A stretch of 30,282 bases of DNA, taken from Planctomicrobium piriforme (GTDB taxonomy: Bacteria; Planctomycetota; Planctomycetia; Pirellulales; UBA1268). Shown here one piece after another: positions 14 through 23,428 of the stretch. Position 1 is the stretch's first letter, and every line of letters starts with the position of its first letter. A model generated the notes under the pieces. The model had not been told where the DNA came from and did not search any database. It saw only the letters and a program-made list of their open reading frames with translations. A program made the position numbers and the translations under genes. Where the stretch lies: assembly GCA_945861585.1 (NCBI GenBank), contig CAMAVC010000038.1:1-30282 (forward strand). The letters run 5' to 3'.

Positions 14-1039
14 TCATGGCTGCGGCCTCCGGGCGGAAGGCTGGGGCGGCTGCGGCACGCTGGCCGGCAGGTTCATGAGCGGCAGAAACTGCTTCGCGTC
101 GGCGTCGAGGATCACCTTGCCGCCGAGCTGCGGGAGCACCTGGCCGATCGTCTCGAGGTACAGCCGCTGCCGCGTCACCGCAGGAGCCTTTTCATACTGT
201 TCGAGGAGCGCTCGAAACCGGGCCACGTCGCCCTCGGCCTCGTTGACCCGCTTCGTGGCGTAGCCCTCGGCCTCGCTGAGCTGCTTCTGCGCCTCGCCAC
301 TGGCCCGGGGCACGACCTTGTTGTATTCGCCGTTGGCCTGGTTGATCATCTGCTCGCGCTCCTGCTGGGCGCGGTTCACCTCTTCGAAGGCCTGCTGCAC
401 GGCCGTCGGCGGATGCACGTTCTTGAGCTGCACCTGCTGCACCCGCAGCCCCATGTGGAGGGTTTCGGCGAGGGCGGAGAGCTTGGCGATCGCCTCGTTC
501 TCGATCCCCTGCCGGCCGATCGTGAGCACTTCGTCGACGGTGCGGTCGCCCACGACCTCGCGCATCACGCTCTCGGAGAGGTCGCGGAGCGTGGGGCCGG
601 GCTCGCGGTGGTTGAAGAGATACTGCTCGGGGTCGGCGATCTCGTATTGCACGACCCACTCGACATGCGCGGCGTTGAGGTCGCCCGTCACCATGTCGCG
701 CTCCCGCTCCTGCTCGTTCGAAACCTGGTCGGGGTTCGTCGTGTGCCCGGAGCCGAAGCCAAACTCCATCTTCAGCTGACGCTTCACCGGGAGGATCGTG
801 ACGGTGTCGATCCCGAAGGGCAGCTTGAACCGCAACCCAGGCCCCGACGTGCCGATGAACCGGCCGAACCGCTGCACCACACCCACGCTCTCGGGGCCGA
901 CGGTGTAGACGCCGCGGGCGAGGCCCGCGACGAGCAAGAGCGCGAGCGCCGCCGTGAGGAGCGCCGGCAGGGGCAGCCCGCCCCCGGTGGGGAGCCGGGG
1001 AAACTGCGACTGGTTCGGAAATCGTGGAAAGTCAGCCAT
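14..1039 (-). CDS. hflK: HflK-like SPFH/band-7 membrane protein (modulator of FtsH protease)
   Basis: From the in-frame ATG (MADFPRF...) the protein has an N-terminal TM segment followed by an SPFH domain (VYTVGPESVGVVQRFGRF..GPGLRFKLPFGIDTV), which is colinear with HflK. The track ORF 14..1531 is over-extended from a GTG. The TGA stop at 14-16 overlaps an ATG at 15-17 on the same strand (ATGA), so the next gene, probably hflC, starts there and runs off the window. Confidence 0.8.
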   Translation of the reverse strand: MADFPRFPNQSQFPRLPTGGGLPLPALLTAALALLLVAGLARGVYTVGPESVGVVQRFGRFIGTSGPGLRFKLPFGIDTVTILPVKRQLKMEFGFGSGHTTNPDQVSNEQERERDMVTGDLNAAHVEWVVQYEIADPEQYLFNHREPGPTLRDLSESVMREVVGDRTVDEVLTIGRQGIENEAIAKLSALAETLHMGLRVQQVQLKNVHPPTAVQQAFEEVNRAQQEREQMINQANGEYNKVVPRASGEAQKQLSEAEGYATKRVNEAEGDVARFRALLEQYEKAPAVTRQRLYLETIGQVLPQLGGKVILDADAKQFLPLMNLPASVPQPPQPSARRPQP

Positions 1040-1169
1040 GCGTCTCAAAAGACAATACCCTCGCGAAGAGGCGCGTGCCACCTGACAGAAACCGTTCGCC
1101 GAGGTGACGGCAGCCGCCAATGAAAACCGGTGTTTTTTTCGATCCGCCCGCGCGACTATCGTGCCGGGC

Positions 1170-2219
1170 ATGACGCACCACTCCGACATCGAACGCCAGA
1201 TCGAATTCGACTTTTTGCGGGCGACGGAGATCGCCGCGCTCAACACGCTCCAGTGGCTCGGCAAGGGGCAGAAGGAGCTCGCCGACGCGGCCGCCTGCGA
1301 CGCGATCCGCGGGATGTTCGATCTCGTAGAGATGTGCGGCGAGATCGCGATCGGGGAGGGGATCAAGGACGAGGCCCCGGGGCTCTTCAAGGGGGAGAAG
1401 GTGGGCACGTGGCGGGCAGGCGCACCGCGGTTTGAGATCGCGCTCGATCCGATCGACGGCACGACGAACGTGGCCAAGGGCATGCCGAACTCGCTCTCCT
1501 GCATCGCCGCCGGCCTCGTGACCGACGGCACGCCCTGCCTCCTCGACGTCCCCGCCTTCTACATGCAGAAGCTCGCCTACCCGCTCGAGGTGCGGAAGGC
1601 GTGGGTGGCCGACCCGACGCTACCGATCGACATCGACGCGCCGGTGGGCGAGGTGATCGACGTCACGGCCAAGATCCTCGGCAAGGAGGTGCGCGACGTG
1701 GTCGTCTCGATCCTCGACCGGCCGCGGAACGAGTCCTTCATCGACGAGGTGCGGCGGAAGGGGGCGGCGCTGCGGCTCATCCAGGATGGCGACATCGCCG
1801 CGGCGCTCGCGCCGGCGATGCGTACGAGCTCGATCGATCTCTACGTGGGCATCGGGGGCGCGCCCGAGGCCGTGCTCTCGGCGGCCGCCCTCCGCTGCCT
1901 CGGTGGTGGAATGCGGGCCAAGATCTGGCCGCGCGACGAGGCGGAGCGAAAGCATCTCGAGGCGATCGGCTGGGGCGACCGGCTGGGCACACAGTTTATG
2001 TCGCGGGATCTCGCCCGCGGCGACCACATCGTGTTCGCGGCCACCGGTATCAGCACCGGGCCGCTGCTCGAGGGTGTCGACGTGCGCGGCACGATCGCCA
2101 CCACGCATTCACTGATCTTGCGGGCCAAGAGCGGCACGGTGCGATTCGTGGAAGCCCACCACGATCTCGACCGCAAGACGATCCACCTGCGGAGCACGCA
2201 GGCCGAACGGCGGGTGTGA
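1170..2219 (+). CDS. glpX: Fructose-1,6-bisphosphatase class II (GlpX)
   Basis: Colinear with GlpX over its full length: ATEIAAL..WLGKGQK..AD.AA..A, IGEGE.DEAP...GEKVG, DPIDGT, and further. The ATG at 1170 matches the GlpX N-terminus. The track start at 1104 is a GTG extension. Confidence 0.85.
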   Translation: MTHHSDIERQIEFDFLRATEIAALNTLQWLGKGQKELADAAACDAIRGMFDLVEMCGEIAIGEGIKDEAPGLFKGEKVGTWRAGAPRFEIALDPIDGTTNVAKGMPNSLSCIAAGLVTDGTPCLLDVPAFYMQKLAYPLEVRKAWVADPTLPIDIDAPVGEVIDVTAKILGKEVRDVVVSILDRPRNESFIDEVRRKGAALRLIQDGDIAAALAPAMRTSSIDLYVGIGGAPEAVLSAAALRCLGGGMRAKIWPRDEAERKHLEAIGWGDRLGTQFMSRDLARGDHIVFAATGISTGPLLEGVDVRGTIATTHSLILRAKSGTVRFVEAHHDLDRKTIHLRSTQAERRV

Positions 2220-3186: not shown

Positions 3187-4473
3187 ATGCAGGCTTCGCG
3201 CAGGACAGTGTCCCGGCGGCGTGCCCTTCAGGCGGGGTTGTCCGCCGGGGCTGCCATCGCCGTGCCCACGATCATTCCCTCGTCGGCCCTCGGCCTCGAC
3301 GGAGCGGTGCCGCCGAGCGAGCGGATCATCGTCGGCGGCATCGGCATCGGTCGCCGCGGCGAATACGATCTCGGCTGCTTTCTCGAGCAGTCAGACGTGA
3401 CGTTCGCCGCCATCGCCGATGTGAAGGAGGGTCGTCGCCAGGCCGTCAAGAAGATCGCCGACACGAAGTACGGCACCGAGAACTGCACGATGCACCGCGA
3501 CTTTCGCGAGGTGCTCGACCGCAAGGACATCGACGCGGTGCTGATCGCCACCGGTCCCAACTGGCACGGCCTGATGGCGATGCTCGCCGCCAAGGCGGGC
3601 AAGGACATCTACTGCGAAAAACCCTGCACGAAGAACATCGCCGAGACGCTCATCCACCGCGACACGATGCGGCGGTGTGGCACGGTGTTCCAGGCGGGCA
3701 CGCAGCGGCGCAACCTGCCGCACTTCGCTTTCGCCTGTGAGCTCGCCCGCACCGGCCGGCTGGGGAAGATCAAGAAGGTCTACGCCCATCCGAATGGCCT
3801 GAGGGCGACGATGAGCGGCTGGCTTCCGGCGGAGCCCGATCCCGATCCGAAGGTGGACGACTGGGACATGTACTTGGGCCCGGCAGCCTGGCGGCCGTTC
3901 AATGCCAACACGCTCAAGGACGGATTCAACTTCGAGAAGGGGGGCGGGCTCGTGGGCGGCGGCGTCCTCGAATGGGGCTCGCACTGCGTCGATCTCTGTC
4001 AGTGGGCCGTGAACGACTGTCTGCCACCCGTGGAGTATCAGCCGCCCGCGAACGACCAGCTCGTGTGTCGGTATGCCGACGGCGCCGAGCTCATCTTCCG
4101 CGAGAAAGGCTGGATCCCGCTCGGCTCGTGCCCCGTGCGGTTCGAGGGCGAAACGGGCTGGGTGGAGGCCGGCGATTCGGGGAAGCTCGTGCTCAGCTCA
4201 CCGGCGCTCCTGGCCGGTCGCAAGATCGAAGAGATCGGCGGCTATCCAGCGACGGTCCACGTCCGCGACTTCCTCGACTGCGTGAAGACCCGCGGCAAGC
4301 CGAAGGGCAATGCCGACGCGGCCTGCAATGCCCACATCGCCTGCCACGCCGCGAACATCGCGATCGCCCTTGGCCGGACGGTGAAGTTCGACAACGCCAC
4401 GAACATGTTCGTCGGCGACGACGAGGCCAACCGGCTGCGGTCGGAAGCCCTGCGGGAGCCATGGCGAGTATGA
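3187..4473 (+). CDS. Gfo/Idh/MocA-family NAD(P)-dependent oxidoreductase with twin-arginine (Tat) signal peptide
   Basis: AGGAGG sits 8 nt upstream of the ATG at 3187. The N-terminus MQASRRTVSRRRALQAGLSAGAAIAVP is a Tat motif. A Rossmann motif IIVGGIGIGRRG follows. The length and overall layout are typical of the family. Confidence 0.7.
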   Translation: MQASRRTVSRRRALQAGLSAGAAIAVPTIIPSSALGLDGAVPPSERIIVGGIGIGRRGEYDLGCFLEQSDVTFAAIADVKEGRRQAVKKIADTKYGTENCTMHRDFREVLDRKDIDAVLIATGPNWHGLMAMLAAKAGKDIYCEKPCTKNIAETLIHRDTMRRCGTVFQAGTQRRNLPHFAFACELARTGRLGKIKKVYAHPNGLRATMSGWLPAEPDPDPKVDDWDMYLGPAAWRPFNANTLKDGFNFEKGGGLVGGGVLEWGSHCVDLCQWAVNDCLPPVEYQPPANDQLVCRYADGAELIFREKGWIPLGSCPVRFEGETGWVEAGDSGKLVLSSPALLAGRKIEEIGGYPATVHVRDFLDCVKTRGKPKGNADAACNAHIACHAANIAIALGRTVKFDNATNMFVGDDEANRLRSEALREPWRV

Positions 4474-6359
4474 ACGGAGCCTCTACGATGCCCTTGAAGA
4501 ACCCGAAGACTCTGTTGCTGACCATCGTCGTGGCTGCCGCCTGTTCGGTGCCCGCTGGCCTCGCCGTGTGCGCGGCGGAAGCGTTGCCGGCCGAAGCCGA
4601 GCTGATCGCCGTGCTCCGCTCCGACGCAAGCGAGGCCGACAAGGCGCTCGTCTGCAAGAAGCTCGCGATCAAGGGCTCGGCTGCCGCGGTCGGCGACCTC
4701 GCGAAGCTGCTCGCGAACGAGCGGCTCGCATCGTGGGCACGGATTCCACTCGAGGCGATTCCGGGCCCCGAGGCCGACGCCGCGCTGCGCGCGGCCGCCG
4801 GGTCGCTCTCCGGCCGGCTCCTCGTGGGCGTGATCAACTCGATCGGCGTGCGGCGCGATGCTGCGGCCACGAGCCTGCTCGAAGGTCGGCTCGGCGACGC
4901 CGACGCCGAGGTTGCGGCCGCAGCAGCGGCCGCGCTCGGCAAGATCGGCACGCCTGCCGCGGCGGCGATCCTCGCGAAGCAGTTGACTGCCGCAGAGCCA
5001 CGGCTCGACCACATGGCCCAGGCGGCCATCGTCTGTGCCGAGCGGCTGCTTGCCGCCGGCCAGGCCGGCGAGGCTGGGAAAGTCTACGGCGCCATCCGCA
5101 CGGCCAAGGTGTCGGAGCAGCGGCAGGCCGAGGCCACCCGCGGCCTGATTCTGGCTCGTGGCAAGGACGGCATTCCGCTCCTCATCGAGACGCTCCGGTC
5201 GCCCTCGCGGCGGATGGCGAACATCGGCCTGTTCACGGCTCGCGAACTGCTCGATGGGCCCGCGGCCGGCGACGTCGATGTGGCGCTCGTGGACGAGATC
5301 ACGCGCATGGCCGGCGGTGGCAGTGCCGACAAGGCGGCGCTGCTCGTGAAGGTGCTGGCCGACCGCAACGCCGACGGCGGCGTTCCCCCGGGCCTGCAGG
5401 CGACAGTGCTCCGCTGGGCGGCGAGCAGCCCGCAGGCGGTGCGCCTGGCGGCGCTCGAGGCGATCGGCCGGATCGGTGACGCATCGGCCGTCGATCCGCT
5501 CGTGTCGCTCGCGGCTGATCCGGCCGTGGCGGATGCCGCGCGGATGGCGCTGGTGGCGTTGCCTGGCGAGGCCGTGAACCGGGTCGTGATCGGCCGGCTG
5601 TCAGGTGCCGATGCAAAGTTGCAGCCGATTCTTGCCCAGGTGATCGGCGCGCGGCGGATTCCTGCGGTCGCGCAGCTGCAGCCGCTCGTGGCAAGCGCCG
5701 ATCCCGTGGTGCGCGGCGCTGCGTTCGAAGCCCTGGGCAACATCGTCGATCTTGCGAACCTCGGGCTGCTCGTTGATGCCGTCGTCAAGCCGCGCGATGC
5801 GGCCGAAGGCGAGGCGGCGCACAAGTCGCTCCTCACAGCGTGCGTGCGGATGCCCGATCGTGACGCCTGTGCCGAGAAGCTCGCGACGGCGGTGGCCGCG
5901 GCCTCGGGCGAGACCAAGACCAAGATCCTCGACATCGTGGGCGAGGTCGGCGGCACGAAGGCCCTCGCCACTGTGAAGGCCGCGGCGATGTCGGGCGAGG
6001 AATCGCTCGCCGACGCCGCCACGCGACTGCTCGGCAAGTGGATGACGGCCGATGCGGCGCCCGTGCTGCTCGACCTCGCGGCCGCGCCGATCGGCGAGAA
6101 GTATCAAACCCGGGCGATCCGCGGCTACATCCGGATCGCGAGGCAGTTCGCGCTCGCCGATGCGGAGCGGGCGGAGATGTGCACGAAGGCCCTCGCCGCG
6201 GCGAAGGATGCGGCGGATCGCAAGAGCGTGCTCGAGATCCTGCCCCGGTATCCGAGCCCGGCCATGCTCGCGGTCGCCGAGCAGGCGTCGAAGCTGCCCG
6301 GCCTCGAAGCCGAGGCGAAGGCCGCCGCCGATGCGATCCGGGCCAAACTTCCCAAGTAG
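4470..6359 (+). CDS. Secreted HEAT-repeat (PBS-lyase HEAT-like) protein
   Basis: The ATG at 4470 overlaps the upstream TGA stop (ATGA), indicating translational coupling. The N-terminus MNGASTMPLKNPKTLLLTIVVAAACSVPAGLAVCAAEA is a signal peptide. It contains repeated A.R.AA..ALG.IGD..AV.PL...L.D units. The track ORF start at 3972 is a spurious upstream extension into the previous gene. Confidence 0.6.
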   Translation: MNGASTMPLKNPKTLLLTIVVAAACSVPAGLAVCAAEALPAEAELIAVLRSDASEADKALVCKKLAIKGSAAAVGDLAKLLANERLASWARIPLEAIPGPEADAALRAAAGSLSGRLLVGVINSIGVRRDAAATSLLEGRLGDADAEVAAAAAAALGKIGTPAAAAILAKQLTAAEPRLDHMAQAAIVCAERLLAAGQAGEAGKVYGAIRTAKVSEQRQAEATRGLILARGKDGIPLLIETLRSPSRRMANIGLFTARELLDGPAAGDVDVALVDEITRMAGGGSADKAALLVKVLADRNADGGVPPGLQATVLRWAASSPQAVRLAALEAIGRIGDASAVDPLVSLAADPAVADAARMALVALPGEAVNRVVIGRLSGADAKLQPILAQVIGARRIPAVAQLQPLVASADPVVRGAAFEALGNIVDLANLGLLVDAVVKPRDAAEGEAAHKSLLTACVRMPDRDACAEKLATAVAAASGETKTKILDIVGEVGGTKALATVKAAAMSGEESLADAATRLLGKWMTADAAPVLLDLAAAPIGEKYQTRAIRGYIRIARQFALADAERAEMCTKALAAAKDAADRKSVLEILPRYPSPAMLAVAEQASKLPGLEAEAKAAADAIRAKLPK

Positions 6360-6377
6360 GACAGGCTTCAGCCTGTC
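6356..6377 (+). repeat. REP-like palindromic element copy 1 (GTAGGACAGGCTTCAGCCTGTC)
   Basis: Exact 22-mer. Its TAG at 6357-6359 is the stop codon of the HEAT-repeat gene. Confidence 0.9.
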
Positions 6378-6393: not shown

Positions 6394-7641
6394 ATGAGGA
6401 ACTCGATGTCTCGTCTTGCAGCGGTCTTTTGCATGACACTGCTCGTCGCCGTGCCGGCCCTGGCCGACGTGACGTTTAAGAAGCAGACCCTCAGCGAACG
6501 CTTCGTCGCCGAGGGCTGCGACATGGCCGACTTCGACAAGGACGGCCACGTCGACATCACGGCTGGCAACACGATCTGGCATGGGCCCGATTTTTCGCGG
6601 CAGACCGAGTTCACGCCTCCAGCCGACAATCCGAGCGGCCCGACGAAGACACCCTACGATCCCACGAAGGGGTATTCGGACTACTTTCTGGCGTACGCGC
6701 ACGATTTCACCGGCGACTCGTGGCCCGACATTCTCGTGTATGGTCTGCCGGGCGAAGCGGCCCATGTGTTCGTGAACCCGCAGGGGAAGCCTGGCCACTG
6801 GGAGAGGCACGCGATCTTCGACGTGGCCGACGGCGAGTCGCCCGACCTCGCGGACATGAATGGCGACGGACGGCCCGAGCTCCTCGTGCACTCACGCGGT
6901 CAGCTGGGATTTGCCGAGATCGATTGGAAACAGCCGCTGGCGAAGGCGCGGTTTCGCCCCGTCACGCCGAAGTCGCCCGAGAACGACAAGAAGTATTTTC
7001 GCTATACGCACGGCTACGGCGCGGGTGACGTGAACGGCGACGGCCGCCCAGACCTGCTCACGAAGGACGGCTGGTTCGAGCAGCCGGTCGATATCTCCAA
7101 GGACACGATCTGGCCGTTCCATCCGGGTCCGTTCGGACCGCCCGACGCGCCTCGCGGCGGCGCCCACATGGAAGCGTACGACGTCAATGGTGACGGCCGC
7201 ACCGACGTGGTCACGAGCTACGACGGCCATGGCTACGGGCTCGGCTGGTTCGAGCAGAACGCCGACGGCACGTTTACCGAGCGCCGGATCATGGGCTCAA
7301 AGCCCGAGGACCACCCCCAGGGGGTCGCGTTCAGCCAGCTGCATGCACTGCGGCTCGTGGACATGAATGGCGACGGCCTCCGCGACATCGTCACGGGTAA
7401 ACGCCGCTGGGCGCACGGGATCAATGGCGATGTGGAGCCGAATGCGCCGCCCGTGCTTTATTGGTTCGAACTCGTGCGCGACGGGAAGGGCGGAGCCACC
7501 TTCGTGGCGCATAAGATCGACGACGACAGCGGCGTGGGCACGCAGGTGACCGTGGGACACCTCGACGCGGACGGCAAGCCCGACGTGATCGTGGCCAACA
7601 AACGTGGCGTGTTCGCGTTTTTTCAGCAGGCTGGACGATAG
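6394..7641 (+). CDS. Secreted FG-GAP/VCBS-repeat beta-propeller protein
   Basis: The N-terminus MRNSMSRLAAVFCMTLLVAVPALA is a signal peptide. The body contains repeated FG-GAP-type D.NGDG..D motifs (DFDKDGHVDI, DMNGDGRPELL, DVNGDGRPDLL, DVNGDGRTDVV, DMNGDGLRDIV, DADGKPDVIV). Confidence 0.6.
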   Translation: MRNSMSRLAAVFCMTLLVAVPALADVTFKKQTLSERFVAEGCDMADFDKDGHVDITAGNTIWHGPDFSRQTEFTPPADNPSGPTKTPYDPTKGYSDYFLAYAHDFTGDSWPDILVYGLPGEAAHVFVNPQGKPGHWERHAIFDVADGESPDLADMNGDGRPELLVHSRGQLGFAEIDWKQPLAKARFRPVTPKSPENDKKYFRYTHGYGAGDVNGDGRPDLLTKDGWFEQPVDISKDTIWPFHPGPFGPPDAPRGGAHMEAYDVNGDGRTDVVTSYDGHGYGLGWFEQNADGTFTERRIMGSKPEDHPQGVAFSQLHALRLVDMNGDGLRDIVTGKRRWAHGINGDVEPNAPPVLYWFELVRDGKGGATFVAHKIDDDSGVGTQVTVGHLDADGKPDVIVANKRGVFAFFQQAGR

Positions 7642-7653
7642 AATGCGTCTCGT

Positions 7654-7675
7654 GACAGGCTGAAGCCTGTCCTAC
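7654..7675 (-). repeat. REP-like element copy 2 (reverse orientation GACAGGCTGAAGCCTGTCCTAC)
   Basis: Exact reverse complement of the unit. It lies 13 nt after the FG-GAP gene stop and is followed by TTTTTT. Confidence 0.9.
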
Positions 7676-7681
7676 TTTTTT
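7654..7681 (+). terminator. Intrinsic terminator formed by REP copy 2 hairpin plus T6 tract
   Basis: GACAGGC-TGAA-GCCTGTC is a 7-bp GC-rich stem. CCTAC and TTTTTT (7676-7681) follow, just downstream of the FG-GAP gene. Confidence 0.5.
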
Positions 7682-7692
7682 GGAGGTCATGC

Positions 7693-8700
7693 ATGCGGTT
7701 CATTGCTCTGATCGTGGCGTTCGTTTCGTCCGCTGCCGTGGCCGCCGACCCCTGGCTCGTGATCGAAGGGGGCGAGGGGCCCGGAAAGGGCAAGCATGTC
7801 GTGCTCGTGAGCGGTGATGAGGAATACCGCAGCGAGGAGGGGCTCACGCAGCTGGCGAAGATCCTCGCCAAGCATCATGGGTTCACCTGCACCGTGCTCT
7901 ATGCGATCGATCCCGAAACGGGCGAGATCAACCCCATGAACCAGAAAAACGTCCCGGGGCTCGAGGCCCTGCGGAAGGCGGACCTGATGGTGATCGCCAC
8001 GCGGTTTCGCAACCTGCCCGACGAGCAGATGCAGGAGATCGATGCGTATCTGAAAGCCGGCAAGCCGGTGATCGGGCTGCGAACCGCGACGCATGCGTTC
8101 GCGCTGCCGAAGGAGTCGCGATTCGCCCGCTACAGTTGGAACAACAAGACCGACATGTTCACCGAGGGCTTCGGCCGCCAGGTGCTGGGCGAGACGTGGA
8201 TCAGCCACCACGGCCATCACGGCCACGAGAGCACGCGCGGCCTCCTCGTGCCCGAGGCGAAGGAAAATCCGATCGTCCGGGGCATCAAGGACGGCGACAT
8301 CTGGGGCCCCACCGACGTGTACGGCGTGCGGCTGCCCTTGCCCGGCGACTCCAAGCCGCTCGTGCTCGGGCAGGTGCTCGAGGGGATGACGCCCGATGCA
8401 CCCGTCGTCACAGGCGCCGACGCCAAGAAGAACGAGCCGATGATGCCAATCGCATGGACCAAGACGTATGCCGTGGAAGGCGGGCCGACCGGCCGCGTGT
8501 TCACGACCACGATGGGCTCGTCGACCGACCTGGCATCGGCCGGCCTGCGGCGGCTGCTCGTGAACGCGGCCTACTGGGCGGTGGGGCTCGAGGACAAGAT
8601 TCCCACGGCCGCGGACGTGGAAGTCGTGGGCACGTATGAGCCGACGCCGTTCAAGGCCGGTGGCCACAAGAAGGGCGTGAAGCCACTCGATCTGCGGTAA
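7693..8700 (+). CDS. Secreted hypothetical protein, tentatively ThuA/class-I glutamine-amidotransferase-like
   Basis: GGAGG sits 6 nt upstream of the ATG. The N-terminus MRFIALIVAFVSSAAVAA is a signal peptide. The body, starting KHVVLVSGDEEYRSEEGL, resembles ThuA-domain proteins. The family assignment is from memory only. Confidence 0.4.
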   Translation: MRFIALIVAFVSSAAVAADPWLVIEGGEGPGKGKHVVLVSGDEEYRSEEGLTQLAKILAKHHGFTCTVLYAIDPETGEINPMNQKNVPGLEALRKADLMVIATRFRNLPDEQMQEIDAYLKAGKPVIGLRTATHAFALPKESRFARYSWNNKTDMFTEGFGRQVLGETWISHHGHHGHESTRGLLVPEAKENPIVRGIKDGDIWGPTDVYGVRLPLPGDSKPLVLGQVLEGMTPDAPVVTGADAKKNEPMMPIAWTKTYAVEGGPTGRVFTTTMGSSTDLASAGLRRLLVNAAYWAVGLEDKIPTAADVEVVGTYEPTPFKAGGHKKGVKPLDLR

Positions 8701-8722
8701 GTAGGACAGGCTTCAGCCTGTC
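8701..8722 (+). repeat. REP-like element copy 3
   Basis: Exact 22-mer. It starts immediately after the TAA stop of the ThuA-like gene at 8698-8700. Confidence 0.9.
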
Positions 8723-8731
8723 AGGAATACC

Positions 8732-8753
8732 GACAGGCTAAAGCCTGTCCTAC
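8732..8753 (-). repeat. REP-like element copy 4 (loop variant TAAA)
   Basis: GACAGGCTAAAGCCTGTCCTAC: reverse orientation with one loop substitution. It lies 9 nt from copy 3. Confidence 0.9.
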
Positions 8754-8761
8754 GACGTCAC

Positions 8762-8783
8762 GACAGGCTAAAGCCTGTCCTAC
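8762..8783 (-). repeat. REP-like element copy 5 (loop variant TAAA)
   Basis: Identical to copy 4, 8 nt away from it. Its CTA at 8780-8782 is the TAG stop of the minus-strand binding-protein gene. Confidence 0.9.
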
Positions 8784-9778
8784 ATCTGCCGGGCAAACCG
8801 CTTCGTTGCCGGGAATGAAAAGATCCCCGGATGCAGGAGGTCCGCGAGCACCTCGAGCGAGTCGACGAGCCGCGGGCCGGGGCGGTTGAAGAGATGGTGG
8901 CCGTCCACCGCGTAGATGCGTCTGGTGCGAAAGGCCCGGAGCATCTTGAGCCGATTGCGAATCGCAGGCGACTCGGCTTCGGCGACGACGCGGTTGAGCG
9001 TGAACCCACACGGCACGAGGATCACGATGTCGGGGTCGGCGGCGATCACGTCGTCCCAGGTGATCCAGTGGGAGTGACTGCCCGACTTGCCGAGCACGTC
9101 GCGACCGCCGGCGAGCGATACGAGTTCCGGCACCCAGTTGCCCGCCGCCATCGGCGGGGCGAGCCATTCGATGATGCTCACCGTAGGACAGGCTTCAGCC
9201 TGTCGTGCGTCGGCCCGCACCCGGCACGCCACGCTGGCAACGCGTGCCCGCAACCGGGCCACGACCTCACGCGCCTTTGCAAGCGTCCTCGTGGCTGCCC
9301 CCACGGCGAGGATGTCGGCATAGACGTCGGCGAGCATTGCCGGGGAGAGCTCGAGCACGCGGGCGGGAAAGCTCATGCGGCACACCGCCGCCCGTACGTC
9401 GGCCGTCGCGACCGCGCACACATCGCAGGCCGCCTGCGTGAGGATGAGGTCGGGCTCGAGGGCGGCGAGGCGTGCCGTGTCGAGCGTGTAGAGGGCATTC
9501 GTCGTCGCTGGCCCGTCGGCCGCATCGGCGAGCGCCCTGCCGACGGCGTCGTGGATCTGCCGGCTCGTGCCGGCCGGATCGATCCGCGGGGCGGTGAGTG
9601 CGGGCAGTGTCGCCACGCTCGCCGGCTCGTCGCACTCGTGCGACCGGCCCACGAGCCGGTCGGCGAGCCCGAGGGCGGCCACGATTTCGGTCGCGGCCGG
9701 AAGGAGCGAGACGATTCTGAGCGCGGGCCTGGCTTCTGGAGCGGCGGGTTCCATCATGATTCCGGTAGGATTGAGCAT
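8780..9778 (-). CDS. BtuF/FecB-like (class III, helical-backbone) ABC-transporter substrate-binding protein homolog without signal peptide; carries an in-frame REP insertion
   Basis: RIVSLLPAATEIVAALGLADRLVGRSHECD and ..WVPELVSLAGGRDVLG are colinear with BtuF-like periplasmic binding proteins. There is no N-terminal signal peptide. AAGGA lies upstream of the ATG at 9778. The stop TAG at 8780-8782 lies inside REP copy 5. The residues RQAEACPT are encoded by REP copy 6 at 9183-9204. Confidence 0.6.
   Translation of the reverse strand: MLNPTGIMMEPAAPEARPALRIVSLLPAATEIVAALGLADRLVGRSHECDEPASVATLPALTAPRIDPAGTSRQIHDAVGRALADAADGPATTNALYTLDTARLAALEPDLILTQAACDVCAVATADVRAAVCRMSFPARVLELSPAMLADVYADILAVGAATRTLAKAREVVARLRARVASVACRVRADARQAEACPTVSIIEWLAPPMAAGNWVPELVSLAGGRDVLGKSGSHSHWITWDDVIAADPDIVILVPCGFTLNRVVAEAESPAIRNRLKMLRAFRTRRIYAVDGHHLFNRPGPRLVDSLEVLADLLHPGIFSFPATKRFARQM
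9183..9204 (+). repeat. REP-like element copy 6, located inside a CDS in-frame
   Basis: Exact 22-mer inside the 8780..9778 minus-strand CDS. On that strand it is read cga cag gct gaa gcc tgt cct acg, giving RQAEACPT. Confidence 0.9.
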
Positions 9779-9792
9779 CTGGAGGTCCTTCC

Positions 9793-10788
9793 ATGTTACA
9801 GCCGGCCCACGATCACACGCCCGCCGAGCGGCTCACCGAGGCCGCCCGGCTGCACGACTACCGCTACGCCTCGAACCCGCTCGCCGACGGCACGCTCGGG
9901 GCGATCCCGGGGGCGCGGTTTCCGGCGGAACTCCACGAGCGCGGGATCACCCGCACCGTACCGCTCGACACGAGCATGGCCCTCGGCTGCCCGGGCCCGG
10001 CCACGACGCCGGGATTGTGTGCCAACTTCGTGCACCTGCGGCCTGGCGACGCCCACGTGACCGACGCCAACGCCACGAGCCAACTGTTCTTCGTGATGCG
10101 GGGGAGCGGCTGCTCACATGTCGGCGAAGGCGGTCCCGGCGACCACGAGATTCCGTGGCGGGCGGGTGATCTCTTCACGCTGCCAGCCAAGAGCCGCGCC
10201 GAGCACATCGCGGCCGACGACGCGGCGCTCTACTGGGTGCACGACGAGCCGCTGTTGCGCTATCTCGGCGTCGAGGCCACGCGGCGGCACTTTGCTCCCA
10301 CGCTCTACACCCACGCGGCGATCATGGAAGCGCTTCAGGCCGTGATGCGCGATCCGGCGAGCGCGAAGGCGAGCCGGGTGAGCGTGCTCCTCGGGCACCG
10401 TTCGTTTCCGCAGACGATGACGATCACGCACGTGCTGTGGGCGATGTTCGGCGTCCTCCCGGTGAACGCGGTGCAGGCGCCGCACCGGCATCAGTCGGTG
10501 GCGGTGGATCTCGTTGTCGATGCCAAGCCGGGCTGCTACACGATGGTCGGCCGCACGCTCGACAAGGACGGCATGATCCAGGACGGCGAGCGGTTCGACT
10601 GGAAGCCACATTCGGTGTTCGTGACCCCGCCGGGCCTCTGGCACTCGCACCACAACGAGTCGGGCCATCCCGCCCACATCCTCCCGATCCAGGACGCGGG
10701 GTTGCACACCCACCTCCGCACGCTCGATATCCGCTTCACCCGGCAACTCACGGGCGGCGGGTGCGAGGTGGTGGAGAATGCCGGCTAG
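9793..10788 (+). CDS. Bicupin protein (gentisate 1,2-dioxygenase-like cupin)
   Basis: GGAGG sits 7 nt upstream of the ATG. The sequence has cupin motifs APHRHQSVAVDLVVDAKPG and VTPPGLWHSHHNESG (P.G..H...N). The two-domain length of 331 aa fits a bicupin. Confidence 0.5.
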   Translation: MLQPAHDHTPAERLTEAARLHDYRYASNPLADGTLGAIPGARFPAELHERGITRTVPLDTSMALGCPGPATTPGLCANFVHLRPGDAHVTDANATSQLFFVMRGSGCSHVGEGGPGDHEIPWRAGDLFTLPAKSRAEHIAADDAALYWVHDEPLLRYLGVEATRRHFAPTLYTHAAIMEALQAVMRDPASAKASRVSVLLGHRSFPQTMTITHVLWAMFGVLPVNAVQAPHRHQSVAVDLVVDAKPGCYTMVGRTLDKDGMIQDGERFDWKPHSVFVTPPGLWHSHHNESGHPAHILPIQDAGLHTHLRTLDIRFTRQLTGGGCEVVENAG

Positions 10789-12244: not shown

Positions 12245-12266
12245 GACAGGCTGAAGCCTGTCCTAC
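12245..12266 (-). repeat. REP-like element copy 7
   Basis: Exact reverse-orientation 22-mer between the convergent BBP7-like gene (ends 12219) and uvrA. Its CTA at 12263-12265 is the uvrA TAG stop. Confidence 0.9.
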
Positions 12267-15200
12267 ACGAGGGCGGTGAGGGCTTCGCCGGTGTGGCTGC
12301 GGAGCGGATCGCCAGCGGTCGGGACGATCTTCGTAGACACGGATGCACGTTCCCGCTGGGCATGGATCATGATGTCTTCCGGCGGGCCCTCGGCCACGAT
12401 CCTGCCGCCGCCGTCGCCTGCCTCGGGGCCCATGTCGATCACCCAGTCGGCCGCCTCGATGACCTCGAGGTTGTGCTCCACCACGAGCACCGTGTTGCCC
12501 GTCTCCACCAGCCGCTCGAGCACGTGGAGCAGTTTCTCGATGTCGGTGAAATGCAGCCCCGTCGTCGGCTCGTCGAGAATGTAGAGCGTGTTGCCCGTGC
12601 CCGGCTTCGCCAGCTCGCGGGAGAGCTTCACCCGCTGGGCCTCGCCGCCTGAAAGCTGCGGCGCCGGCTGGCCGAGCGTGATGTAGCCGAGCCCCACGTC
12701 GACGAGCGTGCCGAGGATCCGCGCGATCTGCGGCGCGGTCTCGAAGAATTGGTGCGCGTCGGCCACGCTCATCTCGAGCACGTCGGCAATGCTCTTGCCG
12801 TGCCACTTGGCGTGGAGCGTTTCAGACGAATAGCGGCGGCCCTTGCAGGCCTCGCACTGCACCCACACGTCGGGCAGGAAGTGCATCTCCACGCGGCGTT
12901 GGCCGAGGCCCTCGCAGGCCTCGCAGCGGCCGCCATCGACGTTGAAACTGAAGGTGCGCGGCGTGAACCCACGGGTGCGCGACTCCGGCACCTTCGCGTA
13001 GAGCTGCCGGATGTGGTCGAACACGCCCGTGTAGGTGGCCGGCGTCGAGCCGGGCGTCGAGCCGATCGACTCCTGGTCGACGAGGATCACCTTGTCGATC
13101 TGGTCGAGCCCCTTCACGGCATCGTGCTGCCCGGGCTGCTCGCGGGCTGCGTGGAGCCGGCGGGCAAGCGCCCGCCAGAGCACTTCGAGCACGAGCGACG
13201 TCTTCCCGGAGCCGCTCGGGCCCGTCACGGCCGTGAGCACGCCCAGCGGAAACCGGGCGTCGAGTCCTTTCAGCGTGCGATGGCGGATGCCCTTGATCTC
13301 GAGCCACTGCCCGGGCACCCGGCGGCCTGTCTGCCGCTTCTTCTCGAGCACCGCGTCGCAGGCCCGGCGCTTCTTGAGATAGGGCCCCGTCACGCTGGCC
13401 TTCATCGTCGCGAGCTTCGTGGGCGCGGCGTGGGCCACGATCATGCCTCCCTCGCGGCCGCTGCCGGGGCCGAAGTCGAGGGCGTGGTCGGCCGCGTTCA
13501 CCACGTCGCGGTCGTGCTCCACGACGACGAGCGTGTTGCCGAGGTCGCGGAGCTTACCGAGGGCGCGGATCAGGCGATGCGTGTCGCGTGGATGGAGGCC
13601 GATCGTCGGCTCGTCGAGCACGTAGAGCACGCCCGTGAGGCCGCTGCCCACCTGGGCCGCCAGGCGAATCCGCTGGAGCTCGCCCCCCGACAGGCTCCCG
13701 GCGGGCCGGGCCATGTCGAGATACTCGAGCCCCACGTCCACGAGGAAGTTCACCCGCGAGACGAGCTCGCGGAGCAGATCGCCCGCGATCTTCTTGTCGG
13801 CGTCCGAGATCTCGATGGCCGCGAGTTCCTGCTGCAGCCGGCCGAGCGGCATCCGGCACCAGACGTCGAGCGAGCGGCCCCAGAGGGTGACGGCGCTTGC
13901 CTCCTCGGCGAGTCGGCTGCCACCGCAGTCGCTGCACGGTACCTCGCCCATCACCGCGTCGACTTTCGAGCGCAGGCCGACCACGAGCCGGGCCGCCTCC
14001 TCGCAGGCGTTTTCGAGGCCTTTGAATTGGAACGCGAACCACGGGGGGGCATCCTCTCGGCTCACGCCTCGGGCTTTCTCGGAGGAGGGCCGCGGCACCT
14101 CGATCCAGCGGTCGCCCGTGCCCTCGAACAGCACGCGCTGCTGGAGGCCCGAGAGATCGGCGAGCGGCACGTCGGCCGGGAGGCCGGTGGCCGCACACAG
14201 GGCCTCGAGCATCGCCCGGCTGGTAGCGCCGCAGTCCTTGCGGTCGAGGCTCGGCCACAGATCGAGCGCGCCCTCGGCCAGCGACTTCGTCGCGTCGCGC
14301 ACAAGCGACGCATGATCCACGCCGGTGCGCGTGCCGAGCCCATCGCACGCGGGGCACCAGCCGAGAGGGCTGTTGAATGAAAACTGCCGCGGCTCCAGCG
14401 GCTTGAACCCCCGGCCGCACGAGCGGCAGGCGAGCCGGCGGCTCATCACCTCGACCGGCCAGTCGGGCTCCGGCAGCGGCTTGCCGTCGGGCCCGTCGGC
14501 AACGCGGGCCACGAGCATCGTGCCCGCGCCGGCGTCGAAGGCCGCCTCCACGCTCTGGGCAAGCCGGCTGCGCTCGGCGGGGCTTGCCGTGACGCGGTCG
14601 ATCACGATCTCGATCCTATTTTTCCGCTTCCGGTCGAGCGACGGCTTCTCGTCCAGGTGCACCGTCTGCCCGTCGATCCGCACCCGCACGTAGCCCGCCG
14701 CCCGCAGGCTCGCGAACAAGCTCTCCGGTGTCTGCCCGACCCGGAGTTCGACTGGCGCGAGCAGGAGCATCCGCGTGCCCGACGGACATTCGAGCAGCCG
14801 CCCGACGGTTTCATCGACGCTCTGGGCTCCGACCTCGAGGCCGCAGTCAGGGCAGTGCATGGCGCCGAGCCGTGCGGCGAGCACGCGAAAATAGTCGTAC
14901 ATCTCCGTGAGCGTGCCGACCGTCGAGCGGGGCGTGCTGCCGCTCGACCGCTGCTCGATCGCCACGGCCGGCGACAGCCCCTCGATCCGCTCGAACACCG
15001 GCTTCGGCACCTGCCCCACGAACTGCCGGGCGTAGGGGGAGAGGCTCTCGACATACCGCCGCTGCCCCTCAGCGTAGAGCGTGTCGAACGCGAGCGACGT
15101 CTTCCCGCTACCACTCGGCCCGCAGCAGACCGTCATCGCGCCGCGCGGGATGTCGGCATCCACCTGTTTCAGATTGTGCTGGGCTGCGCTGCGGACCATG

Positions 15201-18200
15201 ATCGCCGGCGGGCCCGGATCGCGCGACGCTTTTTCAACCTGCGCCATGAGCGCGGCGGCATCGACGGGCTTCTTGCGGCGCACGGCGGTCTTCGCCGCCG
15301 GCTTCTTGGCTGCGGCCAGAATCGGTACGAGTGCCTTGCCGGTGCACGAGGCCTTCACCTTCGCCACCTGCTCCGGTGTGCCCTCGGCCACGATCCGTCC
15401 GCCGCCAGCGCCTCCTTCCGGCCCGAGGTCGATCACCCAGTCGGCCCGCTTCACGACGTCGAGGTTGTGCTCCACCACGAGCACCGTGTTGCCCGCCTCC
15501 ACGAGCCGTTCGAGCACCGCGAGCAGTTGCCGCACGTCGGCCATGTGCAGCCCCGTCGTCGGCTCGTCGAGAATGTAGAGCGTCTTGCCGGTCGAGCGCT
15601 TAGCCAGTTCGCGCGAGAGCTTCACCCGCTGGGCCTCGCCGCCCGAGAGCGTCGGGGACGGCTGGCCGAGATGCAGGTAGTCGAGGCCCACGTCGTGCAG
15701 CGTTTGGAGCTTGCGCGCGATGTCAGGGGCATCGGCGAACAGTTCGAGGGCGTCGCCGATCTCCATGTTCAACAGTTCGGCGACGTTCTTCCCCTTCCAG
15801 CGGACCTCGAGGGTGTCCTTCGCGAACCGGGCCCCGTCGCACACGTCGCAGGTCACCCACACGTCGGCGAGAAAATCCATGTCGAGCCGCGTTGAGCCGT
15901 TGCCTTCGCAGGCCTCGCAGCGGCCGCCCGACACGTTGAAGCTGAACCGCCCGGCCTTCCAGCCGCGCTTCTTCGCCTCGGGCAGCATCGTGAACAGCGC
16001 ACGGATGTCGTCCCAGACCTTCACGTAGGTCGCCGGATTCGACCGCGGCGTGCGGCCGATCGGCGACTGGTCGATCACGATCACCTTGTCGAGCTGGTCG
16101 GCGCCGGTGATCGCGTCGAACTCGCCCGGCACTGCGGCCTCGCTTCCGAGCAGCCGCCGCAGCTCGGGCTCGAGCACGTCGCCCACGAGCGAACTCTTGC
16201 CGCTGCCCGACACGCCGGTCACGCACACGAGAAGCCCGAGCGGGATCTCGACATCGATCCCCTTCAAGTTGTTGTGACGCACGCCGGAGAGTTTCAGCGT
16301 CTGGCCCGTGGGCTTGCGGCGTTTTTCCGGCACCTCGATCGCTTCGCGTCCGGCGAGAAACGCGCCCGTCAAGCTGCGGTCACTCGCCGCCACGTCGGCT
16401 GGCGTGCCCGCCGCCACGACTTCGCCGCCCCGCTTGCCCGGGCCTGGCCCGAAGTCCACCACCCAGTCGGCCGCGCGGATCGTGTCTTCATCGTGCTCCA
16501 CGACGACCACCGTGTTGCCCTTGTCGCGGAGCGCCTCGAGGGCGCCCAAGAGCTTGACGTTGTCTCTGGGATGCAGCCCGATCGAGGGCTCGTCGAGGAC
16601 GTAGAGCACGCCCGAGAGCCCCGAGCCGATCTGCGCGGCCAGGCGAATCCGCTGGCTCTCGCCGCCGGAAAGCGTGGGGGCTTTGCGGTCGAGCGCGAGA
16701 TAGCCGAGGCCCACCTGATCGAGAAACTCGAGCCGCGAGCGGATCTCCTTGAGGAGTTCCGTGGCGATCAAGGTCTGCGTGCCGTCGAGAACGAGGTCGG
16801 AGAGAAATTCCCGCGCGTCCGCGATCGGCAGGGCACACAGTGCGTCGAGCGAGAGCGAAGGCGGTCCCGCGCGTCGGGCCTGGCTCGTGATCCGCACGGC
16901 CCGGGCCTGCGGTGAGAGCCGTGCGCCCTGGCAGGCATGGCAGGGGGTCACCCGCATCAGCTTTTCGAGCATCCGCCGGATGATGCCGCTCTTGGCGTTC
17001 CGCCACTTGGCGGCCAGGAGTGCGAGGATGCCTTCAAACTTTGTCTTCGCGCCGCGCTCGGCCCGGCCGCGCTTCCACGCGAGCTTGATCTCCTCGACGC
17101 CCGTGCCCGAGAGCCAGATCTTCTTCTGGGCAGGGGTGAGCTTTTCCCAGGGGGTTTCGAGGAGCGTGCCGGGGGCGAGCTTCTTCTTCGCTTCGGCGTG
17201 CGCGGCCACGCCCGTGAACAGCCGCCGCATCCAGCGCGGCATGTCGCGGAACGTGCCGAGCACGCCCATGCAGCCCTTCTTGAGCGACTTCGTCGGGTCG
17301 GTGACGAGCTTCTCGGGATCGATGCCGTAGATGTCGCCAAGGCCGTCGCACACAGGGCAGGCACCGATGGGGCTATTGAAACTGAAGAGCTGCGGCTCGG
17401 GCGTCGAGTAGCTCACGCCACAGGCCACGCACGCATAGCGGCTCGAAAGCACGAGGTCGCCTCCACGATCGCTGGCACCGTCGGCACCGGGATCGATGGC
17501 CACGATCACTTGGCCACCGCCGGTGCGCAGTGCGAGGTCCACCGCCTCGGCCAGCCGGCTGCGGCCGGCGGCGTTGGCCACGATCCGGTCGATCACGACG
17601 TCGATCGAATGCTTGAACTGCTTTTCGAGTGGCGGCGGATCCTCCACCCGCACGATCCGGCCGTCGACCCGGGCCCGCGTGAAGCCCTGTCGCACGAGGT
17701 CGGTGAACAGATCGCGGTGCTCCCCCTTTTGGTCGCGCACCAGCGGCGCGAGCACGAGCACCTGCTCGTCGGCCCGCTGGGCGAGAATTCGCTCCACGAT
17801 CTGGTCGCGCGGCTGCGCCTCGAGCACGGCATCGCACTCGGGGCAGTGGGCCGTGCCGACCCGTGCGTAGAGCACGCGCAGGAAATCGTGGATCTCCGTC
17901 ATCGTGGCCACGGTCGACCGCGGGTTCGTGCCAGCCGACTTCTGGGCGATCGAGATCGAGGGCGAGAGGCCTGTGACGCTGTCGACGTCGGGCCGGGGCA
18001 ACTGCCCGAGGAACTGTCGGGCGAACGTGGAGAGGCTCTCGACGTAGCGCCTTTGCCCCTCGGCATAGAGCGTGTCGAAGGCGAGGCTCGACTTGCCCGA
18101 GCCGCTCACGCCCGACAGGCACACGAGCCGACCCCGTGGCAGGGCCACCGTGACGTCGCGCAGGTTGTGCTCGCGGGCACCTCGAACGACGATCGGCGGA

Positions 18201-18208
18201 ACGTGCAT
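12263..18208 (-). CDS. uvrA: Tandem-fused double UvrA (two complete excinuclease ABC subunit A units, four ABC ATPase modules) in one 1981-aa ORF
   Basis: Each half contains a Walker A ([28 protein letters not shown] in the first, [28 protein letters not shown] in the second), Zn-finger CxxC pairs and a UvrB-binding-like segment ([20 protein letters not shown].., [19 protein letters not shown]..). Each half also has signatures [12 protein letters not shown] / [12 protein letters not shown] and [17 protein letters not shown] (twice), plus Walker B YVLDEP / [11 protein letters not shown]. The halves are joined by a Lys/Ala-rich linker ([18 protein letters not shown]). They are clearly diverged paralogs, not identical copies. 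The stop TAG at 12263-12265 lies inside REP copy 7. Confidence 0.9.
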   Translation of the reverse strand: [1981 protein letters not shown]

Positions 18209-18299: not shown

Positions 18300-18372
18300 G
18301 GGGCGGTAGCTCAACTGGGAGAGCGCGGCGTTCGCAATGCCGAGGTTGGGAGTTCGATCCTCCTCCGCTCCA
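18300..18372 (+). tRNA. tRNA-Ala (anticodon CGC)
   Basis: GGGGCGGTAGCTCAACTGGGAGAGCGCGGCGTTCGCAATGCCGAGGTTGGGAGTTCGATCCTCCTCCGCTCCA folds as a cloverleaf. The 7-bp acceptor stem has a G3:U70 pair, the Ala identity element. The anticodon loop is TTCGCAA with anticodon CGC. A T-loop TTCGATC and discriminator A are present. CCA is not encoded. Confidence 0.9.
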
Positions 18373-23400: not shown

Positions 23401-23428
23401 TTGACTCGCCGCGGCGTGGTTTTAGAAT
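23401..23428 (+). promoter_or_regulatory. Sigma-70-like promoter candidate for the nfeD-floA operon (TTGACT-16-TAGAAT)
   Basis: TTGACT at 23401-23406, a 16-nt spacer and TAGAAT at 23423-23428 lie in the pyrE/nfeD divergent intergenic region. The -10 hexamer overlaps the first ATG (23427). The second in-frame ATG (23436) lies at the expected transcription start. Confidence 0.35.

Follow-up and report, generated by a model that had tools for sequence, protein, structure and literature searches.

A GTAG-headed REP element read in frame within a BtuF-fold protein gene of a Pirellulales genome: a probable tolerated insertion in a variable connector

Di Nocera et al. (2013, PMC3733652) catalogued families of repetitive extragenic palindromic (REP) sequences tagged with an unpaired GTAG in over 80 species, Opitutus terrae and Rhodopirellula baltica (GTAG-20/21) among them. 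In the parts of that survey drawn on here, such elements donate the TAG stop codon to flanking open reading frames (ORFs), are thought to be mobilised by Y1 transposases of the REP-associated tyrosine transposase (RAYT) type, and in some cases lie wholly inside ORFs, for which a table of REP-encoded peptides is given; strikingly many were found in uvrA and other repair genes, and the intragenic inserts were argued to be neutral, being in linkers or loops (PMC3733652). Here we analyse a 30,282-nt stretch of DNA from Planctomicrobium piriforme (Pirellulales; contig CAMAVC010000038.1 of assembly GCA_945861585.1), hereafter the window, in which one copy of a 22-nt element, designated REP-A, is read in frame within the gene for a 332-amino-acid (aa) protein of the BtuF/ShuT fold. 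We consider it very probable that this copy is a REP which a working gene tolerates in a permissive connector, because about 150 orthologs have a short connector at this place, the 22 nt are the same as those of intergenic copies, and the ratio of nonsynonymous to synonymous substitution (dN/dS, 0.29-0.30) is like that of comparisons with REP-less alleles.

A second described system is that of the Rickettsia palindromic elements (RPEs), selfish palindromic repeats found in frame in functional ORFs (Ogata et al. 2000, as cited in PMC3733652 and PMC3184786); they measure 105-146 bp, and repeats fused in frame to ORFs have been reviewed (Delihas 2011, PMC3184786). The RPE-4/-6 copies that Di Nocera et al. 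counted carry, according to the consulted part of their text, a CGTC tag and not GTAG (PMC3733652). A sequence-only reading of the window had proposed that a selfish repeat adds a peptide to a host protein in the manner of RPEs. Its in-frame insertion is supported by our results, but the implied novelty is not, in-frame GTAG REPs having been catalogued already (PMC3733652, as far as consulted). The likeness to RPEs is one of functional analogy: in both cases an in-frame insertion adds a peptide at a tolerated position of an ORF that, here to judge from the open frame, dN/dS of 0.2-0.3 and a confidently predicted fold, would stay functional. The two differ in size (RPEs of about 105-146 bp against the 22 nt of REP-A, in a Pirellulales-like genome), in their unrelated sequences, and in the phylum and lifestyle of the hosts.

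REP-A and its in-frame copy

The REP-A unit consists of a GTAG head, a 7-bp G+C-rich stem (GACAGGC/GCCTGTC) and a 4-nt loop, which is TTCA or, in two of the copies (4 and 5), TTTA. Positions 9183-9204 of the window read GTAGGACAGGCTTCAGCCTGTC and match the consensus at 22/22 positions. In the 30 kb of the window we counted seven instances of the 18-nt core GACAGGCTNNAGCCTGTC, against 0.01 expected from dinucleotide-preserving shuffles, and the unpaired 5' GTAG stands at the same stem end in 7/7 copies. Most REP-A copies of the related loci L006, L162, L163, L165 and L172 also start with GTAG, and the opposite flank is not complementary to this head. The copies, the host gene and the codons concerned are as follows.

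6356..6377, plus strand: REP-A copy 1; its GTAG gives the TAG stop (6357-6359) of a HEAT-repeat gene (3972-6359)
7654..7675, minus strand: REP-A copy 2; between an FG-GAP gene (end 7641) and a ThuA-like gene (start 7693)
8701..8722, plus strand: REP-A copy 3; begins directly behind the TAA with which the ThuA-like gene (7693-8700) ends, tail-to-tail with copy 4
8732..8753, minus strand: REP-A copy 4; loop TTTA, in the intergenic cluster
8762..8783, minus strand: REP-A copy 5; loop TTTA, gives the TAG stop (8780-8782) of the binding-protein gene, head-to-tail with copy 4 at a 30-nt period
8780..9778, minus strand: host gene for the 332-aa BtuF/ShuT-fold protein (Peripla_BP_2), from the ORF, PF01497 and the structure model
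9182..9205, minus strand: codons R192-T199 (RQAEACPT), encoded by copy 6
9183..9204, plus strand: REP-A copy 6; GTAG, stem GACAGGC/GCCTGTC and loop TTCA, in frame within the binding-protein gene
12245..12266, minus strand: REP-A copy 7; its GTAG gives the TAG stop (12263-12265) of a 1981-aa UvrA-like gene

The sequence-only reading proved accurate on the element itself: copy 6 lies in frame in the BtuF-like gene, on codons 9182-9205, and is the sole copy away from gene ends, where the other six of the seven are placed. The minus-strand ORF (8780..9778, 332 codons) runs through the repeat without interruption. On the mRNA strand copy 6 reads (C)GA CAG GCT GAA GCC TGT CCT AC(G), i.e. R192-T199, RQAEACPT. 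As had also been stated, two of the three frames in this orientation are stop-free (RQAEACPT and DRLKPVL) and the third contains TGA; in the opposite orientation VGQASAC and RTGFSLS are stop-free and the third frame contains TAG, so that copy 6 uses one of four stop-free combinations of orientation and frame. Peptides such as RQAEACPT, VGQASACL and RTGFSLS are thus readings of the same 22 nt that could be taken for conserved motifs, and repeat-encoded peptides are to be expected in annotations and protein alignments of these genomes. A tryptic peptide across QAEACPTVSIIEWL..., if detected, would prove that the repeat is translated.

Copies 1, 5 and 7 use their own GTAG head as the stop codon of the adjoining gene (ORF ends 6359, 8780 and 12263), and the cluster at 8701-8783 combines one tail-to-tail pair and one head-to-tail pair in three copies. 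Copy 2 is not present at the orthologous site of L162. Copy 7 is missing from L163, where the UvrA-like ORF continues and overlaps the convergent gene, which indicates that in the window the C-terminus of this product has been trimmed by the REP. TAG stops derived from REP heads were also seen at Band_7, peptidase and binding-protein genes in L165, L166, L006 and L172.

These properties are those of GTAG REPs: a short G+C-rich hairpin (a palindromic stem-loop in the 20-40 bp range) with an unpaired GTAG at one end, dispersed in many, mostly extragenic copies (counted here within the 30-kb window) that lie mainly at gene 3' ends, occur singly, as dimers or in clusters, donate TAG, and in some cases stand in frame within real genes. 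Miniature inverted-repeat transposable elements, with their 70-300 bp, terminal inverted repeats and target duplication, are a poor match, since REP-A is a single 22-nt hairpin devoid of terminal inverted repeats. The exact repeat GTAGGACAGGCTTCAGCCTGTC was not found in the searchable literature, which returned unrelated primer matches only.

The host protein and its connector

The product of the host gene matches PF01497 (Peripla_BP_2) with 48 bits against a cut-off of 27.5 bits and has thousands of homologs, the closest being 95% identical and originating from metagenome bins of Pirellulales/Planctomycetia. Both flanks of the repeat are conserved among the homologs, and an invariant EWLxPPMAAGNW begins four residues past it. 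In comparison with REP-bearing orthologs we obtained dN/dS values of 0.30 (L162) and 0.29 (L163); for REP-less or decayed alleles they were 0.19-0.26. Judged by its sequence, the host gene is intact and under purifying selection.

The AlphaFold2 model (mean predicted local distance difference test score, pLDDT, 86.9; predicted TM-score, pTM, 0.85) has the two-lobe fold of class III binding proteins, and the best Foldseek matches were BtuF (5ysc) and the heme-binding ShuT/PhuT (2r7a and 2r79), with TM-scores of up to 0.83 on the target; the relation to BtuF/ShuT is seen at the sequence level as well. The PF01497 match together with two lobes joined by a long backbone helix (166-193) agrees with class III (cluster A). 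The export signal and ABC (ATP-binding cassette) neighbours of that class were not found. No hydrophobic N-terminal segment was recognised by eye, many homologs begin 1-8 residues ahead of the first strand, and no ABC permease or ATPase gene lies beside the gene in any syntenic locus, its neighbours in all of them being a divergent cupin/dioxygenase-like gene and a convergent ThuA-like gene. Because neither a signal peptide nor ABC partners are visible, 'BtuF-like' is used here for the fold only, not for a role in B12 uptake, and the protein is apparently cytoplasmic, as far as its sequence tells. H47-E48-C49-D50, C118, C121 and C257 are invariant across homologs from Planctomycetota, Cyanobacteria, Chloroflexi and Acidobacteria, and the gene is always paired with the divergent cupin/gentisate-dioxygenase-like gene (9793-10788 in the window); the sequence suggests a cytoplasmic metal- or cofactor-binding role instead of periplasmic B12 uptake.

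In the model the backbone helix (166-193) is followed by a loop (194-198) and by the first strand of the C-terminal lobe (199-206). R192-Q193 end the inter-lobe helix, A194-P198 form the loop and T199 is the first residue of the strand, so copy 6 encodes part of a connector from helix to strand that is probably at the surface. The 10-residue block over the insert has a mean pLDDT of 79, and the flanking blocks 91-92. The sequence-only reading had put the peptide in a loop about 10 residues before the conserved strand. The loop is correct for AEACP, in a connector of lower model confidence, but not for RQ (helix end) or T (strand start); the distance has to be corrected, as T199 directly precedes VSIIEWL and itself opens the strand.

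A short connector, R-x5-[RK]-P-[TR]-V-A-x-IEW, is found in about 150 orthologs, which come from Cyanobacteria, Chloroflexi, Acidobacteria, Proteobacteria and other Planctomycetota; the same eight residues in repeat-free orthologs, which had been named beforehand as an observation fatal to an insertion, were not encountered among them. Orthologs in REP-poor loci do contain RQAAAGPT and RQAEAYPT, which their DNA shows to be decayed REP-A. The connector of repeat-free Pirellulales reads CRV-RTFPERP-RVAVIEWL and that of the window CRV-RADARQAEACP-TVSIIEWL. The REP head contributes a P-T that coincides with the conserved P-[RT], so that the window allele has a net +4 codons over the RTFPERP-RV baseline, and +5 residues over P0014 (85% identical) and L006. 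The clean 8-aa gap that had been anticipated at RQAEACPT is therefore replaced by a real gain of 4-5 residues.

Two further explanations of the in-frame copy can be dismissed with some assurance. REPs are normally extragenic, and many 'intragenic' REPs in the literature lie within spurious or mis-started ORFs (PMC3733652, in the part consulted), so one might take the ORF for a pseudogene or a wrongly called frame, in which case the REP would be effectively extragenic. We hold this to be very improbable and rejected it in view of 332 open codons, the full-length Pfam match, flanks conserved in thousands of homologs, dN/dS of 0.2-0.3 and the confidently predicted fold; a real frameshift in this gene does occur, in the homolog P0046, which the window does not resemble. 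A chance or convergent resemblance of native coding sequence to the repeat, for which nothing speaks except the shortness of the element, is refuted by the 22/22 identity including the GTAG head, by the 0.01 core matches expected per window, and by its lack in orthologs of other phyla, and we give it practically no credence.

Contrary to what the sequence-only reading had implied by treating the copy as one insertion, the insert is far from private to the window. Occupancy of the connector was counted in the 120 closest homologs (at least 63% identity); in a scan of metagenome contigs with the family alignment the listed matches were mostly relatives of 40-50%, and close alleles were taken singly.

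At least one REP-A-type peptide: 63/120 homologs
Perfect RQAEACP-T at the junction: 16 of these 63
Two or three tandem REP-A copies: 5 of these 63 (P0074: RQAEAYPTGA-RQAEAYPTAG-RQAEAYPT)
Long insert (L module): 13/120
HVGRPSRSP / VGQPSRLP units followed by ASETLAP (REP-B/C): 7/120
'TV' scar only (RARR-TV): 3/120
None of the listed types: 39/120

All in-gene REP-A alleles have the same orientation, frame and junction (...CCN ACN|GTN). Tandem copies recur at a period of 30 nt both in the gene (L167) and in intergenic DNA (8732/8762 in the window, 15771/15801 in L165). REP-A also encodes C-terminal tails (KVGQASACL, RTGFSLS, TEACPT) in 24 homologs. As regards other host proteins of REP-A, a word search with joined REP-encoded peptides gave one insignificant match.

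The remaining inserts are dispersed hairpin repeats as well. The HVGRPSRSP unit is a headed hairpin, GTGG-GGCGACCG-TCC-CGGTCGCC, of which a variant, GGCAACCG/CGGTTGCC, shows a compensatory change in the stem; ASETLAP corresponds to a third hairpin, GGCAAGC-GAGAC-GCTTGCC. Copies of both hairpins also turn up in L168, L171 and L001, downstream of the gene as well as at other places, and the giant UvrA-like gene of L168 and L171 has one of the two, in frame, in its linker. The L module, for which the Rfam scan returned no family, is a dispersed repeat of about 80 nt with three hairpins. Just downstream of the orthologous gene in L169 (11104-11583) a 114-nt mosaic unit, composed of a further GTGG/GTAG-headed hairpin and the three hairpins of the L module, is repeated 4.2 times with 97% identity; it has no match in Rfam. 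Its middle hairpin displays compensatory changes between copies (GCCGAC/GTCGGC vs GCGGGC/GCCCGC), and an unlinked copy of the L module lies 10 kb away. The in-gene block of L169 and L172 is one such mosaic unit with REP-A at its head. REP-A, REP-B/C and L repeats are likewise located just downstream of the binding-protein gene in relatives.

Bacterial interspersed mosaic elements (BIMEs) of enterobacteria are reportedly built in a comparable way, REPs and other short motifs forming mosaic units and tandem arrays. BIMEs are described as extragenic. The array and the in-gene REP-A + L unit of the relatives resemble them, but the mosaic unit is here translated, the motifs are unrelated in sequence, and the window itself holds REP-A copies only. 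Taken together, the alleles suggest that dispersed hairpin repeats (REP-A, REP-B/C and L), in a BIME-like mosaic, have come to use this connector as a landing pad in a Pirellulales subclade, and that the connector tolerates almost any length, with 5 to about 50 extra residues in relatives, the peptide itself probably having no function.

The protein has a second length-variable loop at residues ~85-95 (about 9494-9526 of the window), which is Gly/Ala/Ser-rich, contains a conserved GAAC[ST]TG core and is up to about 20 residues longer in relatives (L165, L166, L170, L003). No REP-like repeat was found there on inspection, and from this single comparison tolerance alone is not an obvious cause of the hot spot. 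A bolder proposal, which at present we regard as rather improbable, is that the connector is a self-reinforcing integration hot spot in coding sequence, where insertion, duplication (with the 30-nt period), recombination and deletion of at least three unrelated families always keep the frame, and where the copies stay 'alive' and track the REP variant of the genome (TTGA in L165). If this were true, the hot spot would keep a natural record of REP/RAYT activity and offer a rare instance of concerted evolution acting on translated sequence.

The finding represents no new kind of system. The consulted part of the survey of GTAG REPs (PMC3733652) describes scattered intragenic copies, and a single connector holding several families and arrays across a clade was not found in it; as far as that text goes, the concentration of several families and arrays in one connector, the translated BIME-like unit and a hint of homogenisation go beyond the published picture. 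What we describe is a well-documented REP read as part of a host protein, in a phylum whose REP biology has barely been studied, and a series of alleles (families, arrays, decayed copies, scars) in which REP spread, upkeep at the nucleotide level and length tolerance at the end of the backbone helix may be followed.

History and upkeep of the embedded copy

The connector of L172 (P0022) consists of RVRA-A-[REP-A, perfect]-L-[REP-A, two mismatches]-VAML, the two REPs being direct and each in frame. The 5' flank of the window copy (GCA|CGA CAG) is that of the first of these REPs and its 3' flank (ACG GTG) that of the second. A deletion between two direct in-frame REP-A copies around the L module would leave a solo REP, i.e. 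exactly such alleles as those of the window, P0021 and P0030. This resembles the formation of solo long terminal repeats, where one copy likewise remains; it differs in that the repeats have 22 nt, not hundreds of bases, and that the event is deduced from a comparison of alleles. On these sequence comparisons, an origin of the window allele by deletion between the direct REP-As of an L172/P0022-type allele is a serious candidate, a little short of an even chance.

The closest alleles without REP-A could have been naive sites, and P0014 (..IEPV-RV) and L006 (..DAEPS-RV) were considered as such. They were rejected, as the same nucleotides end the dispersed L module. With this end reading GAT GCC GAG CCG TCG CGT GT, the 'DAEPS-RV' connector of the clade-A alleles L006, P0014, P0031 and P0049 is to be seen as an L-module remnant. 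The idea of one private insertion does not hold, the copy being shared by many lineages, the site a multi-family hot spot and its nearest 'REP-less' alleles remnants of another repeat module.

It is nevertheless conceivable that a RAYT-type transposase put one REP-A directly into a naive connector, the mosaics of the relatives arising later and separately and no deletion between REPs being involved. A single REP-A at the same junction in 49/120 homologs would suit this, as would a 30-nt unit in L172 (T-RQAEAYP-TV) after an RV resembling a duplicated target, and the natural 30-nt period of REP-A arrays, which would preserve the frame. The net gain over any REP-free allele is, however, 12-15 nt and not 22 or 30, the closest alleles lacking REP-A hold L-module remnants in place of a naive site, and the flanks of the window copy match the outer flanks of both REPs in the L172-type allele, which leaves direct insertion an unlikely course. 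The size of the inserted unit is compatible with 22 nt, or with 30 nt including a spacer, and inspection of 24 flanks showed neither a consistent target motif nor a consistent duplication.

In a neighbour-joining tree calculated with the connector masked, REP-A, REP-A+L, L-only, REP-B/C and remnant alleles were interleaved among proteins 2-5% apart, which implies that turnover or exchange of alleles is fast relative to protein divergence. A decayed variant, GTGGGATAGGC, which encodes 'AYP' peptides, is common to clades A and B.

The embedded copy is identical at 22/22 positions in the window, L162 and L163, while dS of the gene reaches 0.24 and its third-position identity is 0.82-0.89. All seven third-codon positions within the REP are fixed, and the wobble position of the Thr codon, the first base beyond the head, takes all four values. 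Since the copy is perfect although synonymous sites have changed, it appears to be held at the DNA or RNA level, like the intergenic copies. Orthologous intergenic REP copies showed 2/132 mismatched nt against L162 and 2/109 against L163, compared with 32/271 and 14/281, respectively, in non-REP intergenic DNA. In L165, at 73% aa identity and a dS of 0.81, the in-gene copy deviates in its loop alone (TTGA), and two of the three intergenic copies there have TTGA as well. In loci with no other REP-A within about 20 kb (L164, L169) the in-gene copies have decayed. There is thus a hint, from these sequence data, that the embedded copy is still homogenised with the REP population of its genome. Upkeep of the family might be due to a trans-acting system, or to re-insertion or conversion, with decay after its loss (small samples); a Y1 transposase of the RAYT type, gene conversion or selection acting on the hairpin would presumably be responsible. 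The mobilising enzyme of REP-A is here assumed to be a RAYT.

The same conservation could mean that the element has been exapted, its hairpin being kept for a role in RNA or DNA (a translational pause, an mRNA-stability element at the lobe boundary, or a site for a REP-binding protein) or its residues tuning the hinge of the protein. Such a view would account for 22 nt that stay perfect, including seven third positions, at dS of up to 0.24 and again at 0.81 beside a varying wobble base, and for a site exactly at the domain boundary; the copy-6 hairpin does form in the minimum-free-energy fold of the mRNA-sense strand. The local fold is, however, not significantly more stable than shuffles (z = -1.6), decayed, absent, tandem or different-repeat alleles are interleaved among near-identical proteins, and dN/dS does not differ between alleles that have the REP and alleles that lack it. 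Moreover, as intergenic copies are equally conserved, the constraint belongs to the repeat family and not to the binding-protein gene. Exaptation is therefore improbable, and our preferred reading remains that of a repeat tolerated by a working gene in its permissive connector.

Several results weigh against this reading. The excess conservation of REPs over other intergenic DNA is significant for L162 only (by our own Fisher estimate). No RAYT was detected among the 10 window ORFs scanned with Pfam, which cover part of the window, and a search of 2.1 Mb of loci by tblastn with a RAYT consensus, a weak test, gave no match. In a quartet bootstrap the two REP-bearing clades were split by repeat-free lineages in 157/200 replicates and otherwise arranged in 43, which is weak. 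The uniform orientation, frame and junction of the in-gene copies and the shared GTGGGATAGGC may, on sequence, fit one old insertion followed by inheritance or recombination equally as well as recurrent insertion. Finally, no clean pair of empty and filled sites with a target duplication was found in comparing the window with L162 and L163, whose flanks are too diverged.

Other features of the window

The 1981-aa UvrA-like ORF (12263-18208, minus strand) contains a duplication (12378-12677 vs 15372-15671, 83% identity) and a 119-nt segment present four times; its sequence suggests two UvrA-like halves fused into one product. The halves are joined, in L168 and L171, by a linker with the in-frame hairpin GTGG-GGCAAGC-GTCTC-GCTTGCC, read as GASVSLA, which echoes the published excess of REPs in uvrA. 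A tRNA gene (18300-18372, plus strand; 59 bits), the only match of the Rfam scan in the window, adjoins the start of the UvrA-like gene, and the same tRNA is syntenic in L164.

The FG-GAP and ThuA-like genes are separate in the window (7641-7693, with REP copy 2 between them); a fused FG-GAP+ThuA product of 733-737 aa was called in L162 (10885-13098; REP absent) and in L171 (11094-13295). A gene for an NfeD-like membrane protease (23427-25586) is followed by a gene for the flotillin FloA (26283-27296), which is an ordinary context, and SPFH/Band_7 genes occupy the other end of the window (14-1531).

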